Of a DNA stretch of 64,000 nucleotides, positions 1-49,800 are shown in pieces. The notes under the pieces are model-generated. The model saw only the letters and a program-made list of their open reading frames with translations. It made no database searches and was not told the origin of the DNA. Numbering within the stretch: the first letter of the stretch is position 1; each line of letters starts with the position of its first letter. The position numbers and the translations under genes were made by a program. Where the stretch lies: assembly GCA_905178155.1 (NCBI GenBank), contig CAJINV010000003.1, forward strand, positions 618,720 to 682,719, written 5' to 3'. Source of the stretch: Amoebophrya sp. A120. Its lineage: Eukaryota; Protista; Dinoflagellata.

Positions 1-3000
1 AGAGCTTTGACGGAGGTGCGGCCCTTAAGTCGTTCTCGTCGCACTCGGGGACCGCTGGAGGTGCAGGCAACAGCAGTTTGATCACGACATCGACAACTTC
101 CGCCGGCGGTTGCAGTAGTTCATCTGAGACGTCCAGTAAAAGTGCCTGGCTTTTTGTCGACGCTCGCGAAGTGATCACGGTCGATGATAGCGACCACGTG
201 ATGTGGCCAGAGAGTGAACTGAAGCTTAGGAACATGTTGGATCGACACAGAATAAAGAACCACCGAGAAAGTAGATCTGGTAATCCAGCAGCGACTCTGC
301 ATCCACCAAACATCGTGGTAACCGGTTTTATCGCTTCTTACGACACGGGGGGTGCGACCACTTTGGGGCGCGACGGCTCGGACTACTCGGCCTCGATTTT
401 TGCGCGGCTGCTGCAGGCGAACTCGGTGTGCATCTGGACGGATGTTTATGAGAGTGCACAACTCTCCCTCCCCCTCATTTGTCATGCAAAATACCCAATC
501 CACTTCCCTTTGCCTCTTGTCACTGTGTGCATGACAAGTTCTGGTCGTAGCCCAAATAGCACTACACTCCACCAGTGCAAATTTGTCATGCAAAACCGGC
601 ATTCTTGCTGATGCTTGTATTGCCGTTCATGCGTGTAAAAATGAGGGGGAGGGGGAGCTGTGCACTGTCATAATGTTTCCGGCGTTTTCAGCGCGGACCC
701 GCGCCGCGTCCCCGACGCGTACGTGCTGCCGGACGTCAGCTACCACGAGGCAACGGAATTGGCCTACTTCGGGGCCAAGGTGATCCATCCGAAAACCATG
801 CGACCCGCGCAGGAGTCCGGGATTCCGATCTTCTTGAAGAACACCTTCCGACCCAGGGATGACGGTACCCGCATCTTCCAGACCTCGGCGAAAACTCTCG
901 CAAGACCGGTGTGTGGGTAAGCTCCTGCAGATCAAGATTTTTAGTACAACTTGGTTGCGTGGTTTATAATTCTGGTAGTTTCGTACTCATATATCTACTT
1001 TTGATTCACAATCACTATCACATTCCAAAGCTTGAACTACACGTATAAACAGGTTCAACGTCGCAGACGGAATTTCGCTTCTGAACGTGGAGTGTGCAGG
1101 TATGATAGAGGTGCCCGATATTTTTGCACGCTTGTTCACACGTCTCACCGCCGATAGCGTCGCTATTCAACTCATCAGCCAGGCGGCGACGCAGCAGAGT
1201 GTGTGCTTCGGCGTAAAGTCGGTAGATAGCGCTCAAGCAGTGAAGAGTGTCCAGGCGTGTTTCGCGGAAGAGCTGCGCCGCGGGGATCTGCAGAGCATCC
1301 AGGTACAACTATGTGCATGTGCTTGTTCATGCAACAGAGCATGTCCTTTTTATCTCTTGTTCGCCTAAAATGATCAAAATGTGGACGCCCACTGCGACAT
1401 ACTGCGCGAAGATTTTTAAATTGCTTGAAAATCTAACCACATCATGATACACACGAAATTACGACAACCAGGTGACAGAGCCTTGCTCTGTGGTGGCTGC
1501 CGTAGGAGATGGCATGCGGATGCGGCGCGGCATCGCCGGTAAGTTTTTTCACGCTCTGGGCAAGTCGTCCGTCAACGTGCTGGCGATTGCTCAAGGGAGC
1601 AGCGAGCGAAACATTTCCGCGGTCGTTCCAAGTGAGCACGCTGCGCGTGCCCTGCGTGCGGTCCATTCCGAGTTTTTGACCAAAATGAACATTGGCGTCA
1701 TTGTTCTCGAGGCCTCCACCCTGACGTCATCTACTTCGGGCGGAACGTCTTCATCGAATAACATTTCGACCACCTCGTCCACAAGTTCGTCGGTCAGCAT
1801 GGTCAAGAAGTTGGAGGCGGCCCTGGGGCCGAACGCGCAAGAAAACCTTCTCGGTGCGGCGGGACTGCAGCACGCGGAGAGCAATTCAATGCTCTGCGAG
1901 TTCCGCGTTCTTGGGGCCTTGCGGTATTTAACTCCGCCCACCGGCGGCAGTGAACCGGATCTCGAAGCTTTGCAGCGAGAGGACCATAACAAGGGCCTGG
2001 TCACCTGGGCGGCATCGTCGGAGTATGCGGAGTTGCAACAGGTTACGCTGCAGAACAGTGCCAATTTGACAGCTACTAGTGCTCACCGAGATCAACACCA
2101 GACATCAAAGACGCCGGTGAACAACAATCGCGGTTCATCTCCTGGCGCGACCGGAAACAACAGCCAGCACCGCAATCTCGACCCTGAAATTTTGAAAAAT
2201 GCGTTTGACATGAACGAGCAGCTCGCGGACCTAGCCGACCGCATTTCCATGTTCGCGCACCAGGTGATCGTGTATGCAATGCAAAAGCAACGTACTAGTA
2301 TAAATGGCATTACAAATTAGCCCAGCATATATAAATTAAATTTGTAATGCTGATTTACCTTGAGAAAGAGATTTGTCATGCACAAATGCAATTGCTAAGA
2401 GTACGATACTTTTGCACAGGATATCGTGGTCGACACGACGATTGCGAACGACTTCACAGCCACGCTGCACCCGCAGTTGCTCCGCCACAATTTTCACGTC
2501 GTCTCGATGAACGCAAGGAGTTTGGGTGGCGCTCCCACTTTGTACCGGGAAATTCTGCACGCCAACACCCGGTTCCTGGACGAGGGCGCCGCGAAGACCA
2601 CGTCGCACCTCCGCCGGAAGCTCTCCGCCGCGGCGCTGCGCAAGGAGAAACTGCACCAGCTGGAGCAAAGCGGAAGTTTGGAGGAGCAGACGAAAGTGAA
2701 TTCCTACAAAAACTTATTGAGAGGAAAAATCCCCCCTCCCCATATTGAAAAGGCAAGTTTAGAAAAATTTGCGTTGCGGATTTGAGGTCACAAATCACAT
2801 CTGTCTTGCAAGAAGACAAGGGCAGAAGCTTCCGCCCCATTATGGAAGCGATTTCTCATGCTGTTGGGCCTAAAGGGGAATCGTTTGCCATGCTGAACAG
2901 CTAGACGCATGCGCCTCTACCTAGCCTGGGGATCTGGCCGCAATGCCTCTCTGCAATACAAAGCTGATTTGTGGCCCCAAATCAGCATCACAAATTTCCG

Positions 3001-46800: not shown

Positions 46801-49800
46801 TCTGCGGGATTATTTCCCCCTGGAGGATTTGCGTTTGAAAGCCCTAGCCACCGTGCCTATGGAGGAATATCTCCTCCGCGGCGACGATATCACGCTGAAA
46901 CGCGGGATGTTTCCCGTGGGTTCGAGGTACTTTGTTACGAAACCGGACGAGGAGTATTTGCGCGCCAGACACGCGGTTTTGAAGTACCGGGACGAGGAAA
47001 AGCAGAAGCGCACGTCCGCCAGGAAGACGCTCCGGAAGTTCTGCTGCTTTTGTTGCCCGACACTGCGTATGACTTGCAAAACAAGTATCGTAGTACTCGT
47101 ACGAGATTCTTGCAGTCTGGCATGAGAGATCCGGTTTTTTTTATCTGAATCTGCATAACAAGTTTTCTGAGAAGTCATGCGATTTGTACTAGTGCGATTA
47201 GGATACTTTGCAATGCATAGTGCGAAAAGCCATGCACATGACGGACGACAATCCGTACCGTGTGCTTAACAGCGACGGCTGCATCTGCGACGTGGCGGGC
47301 AAACTGGAGATTTTCGGCGACATTGACGATCAAAAGGAGCACATCCTGGCGGAAGCGGAGGAGCTGCGAAAGATCCAGGAAGAAATGGACAGGGAGAACA
47401 GTGATCCCTTTGGGATTTCTGATGACTCGTTGTCCCCGAACAAGAGAAATTCATCCAACAAGCGCATCACCACCAGTTTCCAGAAGAAGCGGGGGAGTAA
47501 AAGTGACCGGATCGCGAAAAGGTACGACTACGAGAAGATGTTTCAGAAGTTGTCCGTCGAGGGCATGCCTAGGCCCAAGCTGCCGAACACGCTGGAGAAG
47601 TACCTGGCGCTGCGGTCGGAGCACGCGTACTTTGGGCAAAAGCTCGGCATCTACTGCGTGTTTGTGCGGCACTTCGCGAGCGCGCTGCGGACGCCCGCGG
47701 AGTTCGGGCTACTCGTCACGCTGTTTCAGGCGATCATTTCCTACCTGGACCTGGACACGACGGACCCGACACAGAGCGGTCTGAAGTGGACCGCCAGCCA
47801 CGGCGTCCCGCTTTTGAACGCTGCGTTTTTGGCGTGGTGGGGCCCGTCCTACATTGCCAGCTGGGAGCGCGTGCAGAAAAGGAAAATGCTGCAGCTTTTT
47901 GGGGTGGTTCCGGGGAAGAACTACAAGCACGCCAGCAAACACCAACCACGGAAACGCTTCCACGGGCTGAAGCAGAAATCCGCAATCACCGGCGAGTACG
48001 AGGTGGTCTTTCCGGTTCGCGAGGCGCGCGCGCGCGCGATGTATTCGAACCTGTGCTCCATGCTGTTCTGCACGCTGGTGTTGTGCATCGTGGTCGGCGT
48101 TTCTGGTATTCAGTTTGTCATCTACGAGCACACCATGATCTCGTTCAGTGACAGTCTCTCGTACAACTACTCGCTGGAGCTGATCGGCGTGATGAATGCG
48201 GTCGTGGTCTTGATCTTCAACGCCATCTATTCTTACGTCGGGCTGTGGCTCACGCACTACGAGAACCACGCGACCTACGAAGGTTTTTTGGAGTCCTTTG
48301 CCATCAAAAGCTGTGTGTTTCAGTTTTTAAACAGTTACTCCGCGCTGTTTTACCAGGCGTTCGCGCAGAAATTTTTGCTGCGGCGGATTGCGAAGGGCCT
48401 CGGGAACGACAAGAGCGATGAATGGTACGACATGCAGTACGACGCCATCTGCCCGAAGGAGTCGATTCTCTTCGGGAGCACCTGCGAGATGGGGACGACA
48501 AACCGCACCCTGGTATCATTAGTTCTGGTTTTCATGGCGCGCAACGTCACGGAGCTGGGGCTGCCGATTTTGGCGCATTGGTGGGCGGAGTGGAAGCGGA
48601 AGACCAACCTGCGCGCGATGGACGCGCAGCGCTGGGCGTTTACAAAACAGGGCGAAAAAAGCATGCTCGGCCGGGCCTTGCTCCGAATATCCACCACCGT
48701 AGCTTTGCCAGGCCAAGGCGGAGGCATCACCACCGCGGGAGCAGGCGATACAGCTGCCACCTCAAGCGTAAAGATGGAGCGCCCCGCGGCCGATGGTAAA
48801 AGAAATGTCGACGACGCTACAACTGGAGTGGTCCAGGCGAGCAAAACCCCGGTAGCTGGACCTCCTGCGGCTACAGTTCAGATAGACGCTTCTGGTAAAA
48901 TTGCGCAACAAGAGCACCGCCAATCTAGTACCCTGGAGAGGAGCAGCACGATGACGTCGAAGCCGCCCTCCTCCTCCGCAGGGCCTGTCTTCGCTAATGC
49001 GGTTTTCAAGGCGGGACTCGAACAAGATCGATCCTCGAGCACGTTGAACACCGTAGTACAGGCGGAAAATGAAATCCAGTTAGACGACATTACGTTCAAC
49101 ACTGCACCTACGAGCAGGGAAGATGCATACGCAGCCAATGCGAATGCCCGCACTACACTCCAGCTCGCTTCCTCGCACAAGCTCCCGAAGCCCAACGAGC
49201 GCGGAGGGGGAGGCAGCCACCCGTCGAAGCCGCGGGCTAGAGGTGCACCTGTTCTTGCCGTGTTCGATGCTCCTGGTGACATTACTTCCCAGCAGATCGA
49301 GGGGTCGCATAATGCTGCGGACGAGCAGGATAACGACCGTAGCGGTCCAGTTGGAGGCGGGACAACAGCGAAGAAGATGTCCCTTGAGGAGGCATTTGGA
49401 AACGCAACGTCAACAGTACTAGCTGCCGATCCGAATAAACGCGACGACGCCCCCCGGCTGACTCCGCTGGAAGAGCTTGTGCAAAAGTACGACCGCGAGA
49501 ATGCCGCCCTACAGGCTATCTACGTGGGGGAGGAACCGGAATTGCCGGACTACTTTTACGACGACACTGCGGAGTACGACGCGAAAGCCGTCCGGGCAGC
49601 GCGCCACGCGGGCTCGTTCACCGAGAAGAGCGGCGGCGCCGACTTGCCCATCGACCGCAGCTCCTCGAATGCCTCGTCGAAAGAGTCCGTGCGGCCACCG
49701 AAGAAGCGCGACTTCGAGGAAGACGAAGACGGCCCCAGCGGTTTACGCCGAGAAACGTCCGGCATCGTCGTGCCTGCTCCACCGACGAATATGGTTGGTC

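Follow-up and report, generated by a model that had tools for sequence, protein, structure and literature searches.

This study concerns a short DNA motif, TTTGTNATGC, that recurs inside the introner elements of Amoebophrya sp. A120 (Dinoflagellata), as found in one stretch of 64,000 nucleotides of contig CAJINV010000003.1 (positions 618,720 to 682,719 of the forward strand; hereafter the window). In its passages on A120, Farhat et al. 2021 (PMC7789003) describe introners whose inverted repeats start with TAT, followed by ~7 variable bases and at least 3 A; direct repeats of 3-5 nt that lie over the exon/intron borders of non-canonical introns of ~240 nt; and many strain-specific introner families without coding capacity, in a genome of co-oriented gene blocks. 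The elements of our window match these published introners, since they show end-joining inverted repeats, direct repeats at their borders, the TAT-N7-AAA ends and non-canonical removal. In the sister strain A25 the inverted repeats begin with TTA instead. The strings TTTGT, ATGC and GCAT do not occur in the main text of PMC7789003, nor do the motif strings searched for occur in its figure legends, the logo images lying outside a text search.

In the passages and the 21 of 58 A120 rows of sd07 considered here, Gozashti et al. 2025 (PMC12130899) class A120 families as terminal inverted repeat (TIR) DNA elements of superfamily Unknown. Their families of 149, 252-260 and 305 bp have TIRs, mostly non-canonical splice ends and target site duplications (TSDs) of up to 5 bp; in length they resemble our families B, D and C respectively. 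Their ‘family 38’ is a candidate autonomous element with Copia/Gypsy integrase-like open reading frames (ORFs) between its TIRs, which would fit the 5-bp TSD seen here. No internal motif is mentioned in these passages and rows.

The closest described parallels to the motif itself lie in other TIR transposons. According to the relevant passages, Lemi1 proteins bind cooperatively to subterminal repeats of Emigrant, a MITE (miniature inverted-repeat transposable element; PMC1636448), and the Herves hAT transposase binds the subterminal motif CG/AATTCAT (PMC3143072). As far as those passages go, the window elements are alike in that, besides the TIR, they carry a short motif several times over within each of their two ends; by analogy, the set of non-autonomous elements open to a given transposase may be expected to depend on cooperative binding. 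They are unlike Emigrant and Herves in their 5-bp TSD and TAT...ATA ends, in having one motif across many families that cannot be aligned, in a ~32-nt lattice of copies and in an outermost copy whose orientation flips between families. Further subterminal cases are the 12-bp TnpA motifs of En/Spm, the AAACGG repeats of Ac, and the multiple end sites of Mu and Tn7, which have a 5-bp TSD. On the splicing side, the nonconventional introns of euglenids lack GT-AG and have their ends joined by base pairing. They may be likened to the window introners, most of those seen spliced lacking GT-AG as well and the ends of all being predicted to pair; we know, however, of no TSD/TIR transposon anatomy of this type and of no shared internal motif in euglenid introns. 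Searches of full-text literature with the motif strings gave unrelated uses only, among the matches listed (titles and abstracts). The motif is thus not described in the literature searched, and our best reading is that it joins a known kind, the subterminal repeats of TIR transposons.

A motif confined to introner elements

The first-pass annotation, made from the letters of the sequence, had proposed that introner families with unrelated TIRs share an internal motif, in several copies and usually in both orientations. On both strands of the window TTGTNATGC matches 50 times (26 +, 24 -), against a dinucleotide-shuffle expectation of 2.31 (sd 1.5, largest 7), and 0 of 100 shuffles reach 50; the 10-mer TTTGTNATGC matches 38 times against 0.74 expected. 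The observation thus holds, and more strongly than that annotation had put it. Alignment of the 50 sites extends the consensus to A-A-T-TTGT-N-ATGC, in which C is the commonest central base (28 sites), before A (13), G (8) and T (1); a de novo k-mer check returned GCATGACA(A) as the k-mer present in the largest number of family representatives (7 of 8).

All 50 copies of TTGTNATGC lie inside 22 of 23 small TIR elements that cover ~8% of the window. Twenty-one delimited elements (4,657 bp in total) hold 48 of them, and the last two, at 37726 and 47153, fall in elements D5 (37691-37971) and B8 (47068-47219); the remaining ~59 kb outside the elements has zero matches. Dinucleotide-shuffled elements give a mean of only 0.53 matches (maximum 4 in 1000 shuffles) against the 48 observed, so the composition of the elements fails to explain the excess, and the enrichment holds over a composition-matched background. 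Each of the ten copies named in the first-pass annotation (479, 529, 583; 3831, 3863, 3896; 9471, 9519; 35762, 35794) is an exact match. When copies with up to one mismatch are counted, 20 of 21 scanned elements show the motif in both orientations, and C4 (21885-22135) lacks it altogether. The first-pass annotation had not seen the motif recur in canonical introns; there is indeed none in the four GT..AG introns that transcript contigs reveal in the window (916-1051, 1299-1467, 16856-17008 and 39766-40035), though these total only ~730 nt. Two other repeat regions, 7016-8591 and 54776-57376, hold no motif copies either.

The 23 elements, of 150-322 nt, were delimited by a scan for TAT...ATA inverted ends with flanking duplications, and are given below with the position and strand of each exact motif copy. 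‘Skipped a>b’ denotes a joint, among the joints listed, in contigs of runs X3, X4 and X6, which are transcript-like and whose RNA nature is presumed.

A1, 447..672: TIR of 35 nt, TSD ATGTT/ATGTT; motif at 479+, 529-, 583+; skipped 441>673 (231 nt, the element plus 5), ends AT..TA
B1, 2273..2423: TSD TCGTG/TCGTG; motif at 2307-, 2342+, 2373+; skipped 2266>2423 (156 nt), not GT-AG
E1, 2715..3036: TSD AAACT/AAACT; motif at 2985- and three one-mismatch copies, in 32-nt steps
C1, 3687..3997: TIR of 53 nt, TSD AGTTC/AGTTC; motif at 3728+, 3831-, 3863-, 3896+, 3948-; skipped 3681>3998 (316 nt)
B2, 4106..4256: TSD GGTCC/TGTCC; motif at 4175+, the other sites of the family degenerate; skipped 4101>4258 (156 nt)
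D1, 4325..4594: motif at 4448+, 4545- and one-mismatch copies; skipped 4323>4599 (275 nt)
A2, 9160..9382: TSD TTGGA/TTGGA; motif at 9192+, 9243-; skipped 9154>9383 (228 nt)
C2, 9430..9741: TIR of 58 nt; motif at 9471+, 9519-, 9692-; skipped 9425>9743 (317 nt)
D2, 13457..13723: TSD GCTGG/GCTGG; motif at 13496+, 13675-
D3, 13771..14032: motif at 13810+, 13895+
C3, 14822..15128: TSD CACTG/CACTG; motif at 14965-, 14997-, 15030+
B3, 15218..15368: TSD GAGCA/GAGCA; motif at 15252-, 15270-, 15286+
D4, 17132..17393: TSD GGCCA/GGCCA; motif at 17173+, 17346-; skipped 17126>17394 (267 nt)
B4, 17459..17612: TSD GTTTC/GTTTC; motif at 17492-, 17526+; skipped 17453>17613 (159 nt)
B5, 17980..18135: inverted relative to B1-B4; motif at 18022-, 18059-, 18075+, 18093+; skipped 17976>18138 (161 nt)
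C4, 21885..22135: C-like TIR of 44 nt (93%), TSD AATTC/AATTC; no motif
F1, 27353..27565: motif at 27412+ and seven one-mismatch copies; skipped 27348>27567 (218 nt) in X3 and X4
G1, 29209..29422: motif at 29256-, 29380-; contig pieces 28759-29208 / 29423-29796
B6, 31722..31871: inverted, TSD GACGG/GACGG; motif at 31788-, 31829+
H1, 35694..35844: TSD GCTCG/GCTCG, with the 151-nt layout of family B; motif at 35762+, 35794+
D5, 37691..37971: TSD CTGCA/CTGCA; motif at 37726+
B7, 41424..41576: motif at 41458-, 41492+, 41526+
B8, 47068..47219: diverged B, TSD CTGCG/GTGCG; motif at 47153-

Conservation and phasing of the motif

The elements have the features of MITEs, namely TIRs (35-58 nt, with 78-93% complementarity), a TSD of fixed length, many copies and no coding capacity. 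Families number 2-8 copies in the window, and further copies at 72-94% identity are found in loci of the metagenome contigs JACKZZ01. The 5-nt flanks are identical in 14 of the 23 elements and match at four of five positions in 8; G1 falls in neither group. Among the imperfect duplications six of eight (B2, C2, D3, F1, B7 and B8) differ at the first base only, while those of D1 and B5 differ at another position.

It had been said that the TIRs of the different families are unrelated. For the ends this does not stand: 46 element ends share T-A-T-S-N-A-N-T-G-C-A-A-A-A (41-42 of the 46 have the initial T, A and T, and 32-41 have A at positions 11-13), so that TAT-N7-AAA(A) is common to the families; moreover F and G have their first ~16 nt in common, and H aligns with B in the same 151-nt layout. 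Beyond the ends the dissimilarity was borne out, with one exception. When motif copies (plus or minus 3 nt) and the 15-nt termini were masked and 28 pairs of family representatives were compared with shuffles, 27 pairs were no better than the shuffles (|z| at most 2.2), and C1-E1 was the single pair with a short extra match (z 6.6). With masked pairs at shuffle level, the motif and the terminal box are all that the families still have in common.

Against this background we conclude that the motif is a shared cis code, neither a chance recurrence nor plain residual homology; the conclusion is supported by the conservation of its fixed positions, by the phasing of its copies at 31-34 bp and by the 27 of 28 family pairs that lack other similarity. 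Conservation was scored by leaving one copy out, the exact sites of that copy being read in the other copies of its family (46 sites, 2054 windows): identity was 0.83 at the eight fixed positions, 0.53 in interior windows and 0.45 at the N position (Mann-Whitney p 9e-17). In enlarged copy sets, drawn from the window and the JACKZZ01 loci and counting only copies that had not been picked through the motif, divergence from the family consensus was 3-6% at fixed positions, compared with 12-34% at N, ~21% across the interior and 8-14% within the outermost 30 nt. In both tests the alignments anchor on conserved blocks and the copies are related, so these figures are indicative and are not exact probabilities.

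In most elements 32-48 nt separate each end from its outermost copy, which faces inward in families A, C and D; in B and H it faces outward. Adjacent copies (at most one mismatch) cluster at distances of 16-18, 31-35 and 48-52 nt; 22 of 71 adjacent spacings fall at 30-35 nt, with a mode of 32. A step of 31-34 occurs in 7 of 8 family representatives where 1.6 would be expected, and 0 of 5000 random placements reach 7. Measuring spacing and orientation, as the first-pass annotation had proposed, thus revealed a ~16/32-nt lattice with the two orientations in near balance. In the seven pairs scored, the spacers between phased copies match at 3-9 of 18-19 positions; such unrelated spacers indicate that the phasing does not stem from recent tandem duplication.

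Independent DNA gave a similar picture. Metagenome contigs scanned for a pair of phased copies gave at least 122 loci. At least 38 of them come from JACKZZ01, 34 of which match elements of the window at the 72-94% identity given above. The JACKZZ01 loci include several TIR families absent from the window, whose first copy again lies 32-48 nt in from the end, with steps of ~32 nt. Twelve elements there were defined by structure and had not been selected through the search pattern; 11 of them carry the motif, the twelfth, motif-free candidate being doubtful and nested. Among the other metagenome loci listed, the eight inspected (each with at least 5 copies) are unrelated tandem repeats, and among these the motif is not evidenced in another organism.

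Some further observations concern the ends and their surroundings. The terminal box TAT-GCATTGCAAA (for example at 4106-4118, 4325-4337, 15218-15230 and 41424-41436) is one base off the internal motif GCATNACAAA, and in family B the next motif copy of like orientation is 31 nt away from it; on these two grounds the box may be a degenerate copy of the same site. The segments 2688-3083 and 3652-4036 are a duplicated short exon segment, with ~27 and ~40 nt of flanks alike, whose two copies are split by different introners, E1 and C1, at insertion points 6 nt apart. Transib, a superfamily with a 5-bp TSD, is defined by CACAATG-type ends, and the ends here begin with TAT and not CAC; a heptamer-spacer-nonamer layout like that of Transib or of recombination signal sequences was considered and dropped, as it does not agree with TAT ends and a motif orientation that is not fixed.

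Removal of the elements from transcripts

The contigs of X3, X4 and X6 skip the GT..AG introns as 915>1052, 1298>1468 and 16855>17009, and the same contigs skip at least 12 of the 23 elements exactly as the element plus 5 nt, that is, with one TSD copy; the joint of G1, one of the 12, is 29208>29423. For 11 of these 12 elements there is no GT-AG at any allowed cut, and the ends read, for instance, AT..TA or AG..TA. The exception is G1, which gives GT..AG when the cut is shifted by +1 (29210-29423); its right end has changed to ...TTGCATTACAG, readable as that of a GT..AG intron, and G1 looks like an introner turned canonical intron. B5 is inverted and still removed, so removal is independent of the orientation of the element. 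Every element seen spliced carries at least one exact motif copy. DNA run X1 retains the elements, and the joint 27348>27567 does not occur in X1.

Elements with imperfect duplications are still dropped as the element plus 5 nt in the transcript contigs, and the joint at B2 retains the base of the left copy. The right ends of family B (2410-2423; B1-B4 and B7) finish in TTTTGCACAG directly followed by GATA, which resembles a 3′ splice site; use of this CAG as a 3′ splice site was considered and dropped, since the joints seen correspond to the element plus TSD. Two runs of raw RNA reads under the same species label, X9 and X10, gave 32 and 0 reads, all on one TIR: the X9 reads pile up only on the TIR arm 9685-9725, with G>A at 9715, and continue into other sequence, so that the pile is probably another copy in a different strain.

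Predicted RNA folds of the elements are rod-like hairpins of -37 to -137 kcal/mol, and in each of the 23 elements 8-15 of the first 15 bases pair with the opposite end. Folding brings the innermost motif copies of the two arms opposite one another in families C and D, yet only 4 of 7 such elements have agreeing central bases in these copies, which favours a reading of the sequence over a maintained stem pairing.

Elsewhere in the window, 7016-8591 contains five ~129-nt repeats and long palindromes (arms of 56 nt, 91-93%), with little depth of transcript contigs over 7338-8004. The region 54776-57376 has nested inverted repeats (54776-54840/57312-57376 and 55134-55199/56212-56277) and, at 56562-56748, a hairpin with 78-nt arms (91%); its ORFs have no Pfam hits. 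From 63588 to 64000 there are tandem units of ~14-15 nt (AAAGCAAAGCGCC-like), followed by GGGCA and GAGGC pentamers to the end of the window.

What may read the motif

The first-pass annotation had suggested that one shared trans-acting factor, whether a transposase, a dedicated splicing factor or a guide RNA, may read the motif. The shared cis code that this requires is borne out by conservation, phasing and the masked pairs; among possible readers a transposase and a splicing factor both remain in contention, and a guide RNA is the weakest. We give about an even chance to the reading in which phased TTTGTNATGC is where one DNA-binding protein with sequence specificity docks, the prediction being that this protein is the transposase or a cofactor of it. 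Such a protein might make a two-part contact, to TTTGT and to ATGC, with the middle base not read, and might bind cooperatively; as a step of 32 bp amounts to ~3 turns of B-DNA, the sites would be placed on one face of the helix. The array together with the terminal box would mark dissimilar families as substrates of one enzyme, which would make a 5-bp staggered cut at the target, and the bound protein would assemble the element ends for transposition. A short motif in several copies inside both ends, conserved above its surroundings, is what we find; a two-part word with a free middle, in both orientations and in phased arrays inside both ends, is classically the mark of subterminal repeats bound by a transposase or its cofactor.

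Several points weigh against this docking-site reading. Pfam finds no transposase domain in 25 long ORFs of the window, its hits being host domains (AA_kinase, ACT, MFS, RCC1 and anoctamin), and the passages of Farhat et al. 2021 (PMC7789003) that deal with A120 report no transposase and argue against mobilisation by one. The flip of the outermost copy between families is unusual for a site that positions an enzyme, and C4 has good TIRs and a perfect TSD with no motif at all. In family B, with 34 copies, private changes number 9/308 in the motif, 24/799 elsewhere and 19/776 in the TIRs; as a test of a transposition role versus a host-level role this is weak, since a deficit is lacking in the TIRs as well. 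The predicted folds pair 82% of motif positions against 67% of other positions, which fits recognition of duplex RNA too. Finally, a motif required for the splicing of new insertions would leave the same conservation at the level of lineages.

These last points lead to a role in RNA, in which the motif would be the code of a dedicated factor that aids the GT-AG-free removal of hairpin introners and might read it as a duplex within the rod-like intron fold. We regard this as rather unlikely, although it accounts for a good deal: 11 elements, in both orientations, are excised exactly as the element plus 5 nt with non-canonical ends; all elements seen spliced carry the motif, which is placed in predicted stems; the lineage-level conservation fits selection for the spliceability of new insertions; and, in the passages concerned, PMC7789003 gives the mechanism as unknown and U1 as not found in the lineage. 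However, the motif is about equally frequent in the two orientations (26 +, 24 -) though all transcripts seen are on the + strand, as are all ORFs with Pfam hits, which makes a reader of single-stranded RNA unlikely. To our knowledge there is little precedent for reading duplex RNA in a sequence-specific manner. B2 and F1, moreover, are spliced with one exact copy each, G1 can be removed as a plain GT-AG intron, and family B has no deficit of private mutations at the motif (with the same weakness of the test, its TIRs having none). A related and in our view still more doubtful proposal is that the phased TTTGTNATGC array labels hairpin transposons in pre-mRNA for a dedicated, sequence-specific factor, which would have them removed exactly and independently of GT-AG and might be the same transposase-derived protein that mobilises the elements; if true, this would constitute a protein-addressed class of introns.

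Two simpler explanations fit less well. The motif could be a relic, the slowest-decaying remnant of one ancestral element and without present function, as the TAT-N7-AAA ends and 5-bp TSD common to all families, the single layout retained by B and H and the short extra match of C1 with E1 (z 6.6) might suggest. A relic should nevertheless decay like its surroundings, and the fixed bases stand far above their flanks while the central base is free, the 32-nt phasing is kept despite unrelated spacers and 27 of 28 family pairs keep nothing else; we therefore consider a relic very unlikely. Least probable of all, and hard to credit, is a small RNA complementary to the motif that addresses the elements for splicing, silencing or excision. 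The motif is short, common to many families and present in transcribed introns, as such a guide would need; but its free central base (C 28, A 13, G 8 of 50) would leave a 10-nt duplex mismatched at its centre, both of its orientations are in use, its copies are mostly already paired in the predicted intron fold, and Rfam gives 0 matches in the window.

Introner elements are most of the introns of this parasite genome, and the motif offers a handle on two questions about them: what moves the elements, and how they are spliced without GT-AG. It could help to fish out the binding protein, guide searches for the autonomous element and be a variable in studies of splicing efficiency. If the docking-site reading is true, it would explain how a single enzyme is able to act on hundreds of dissimilar families.

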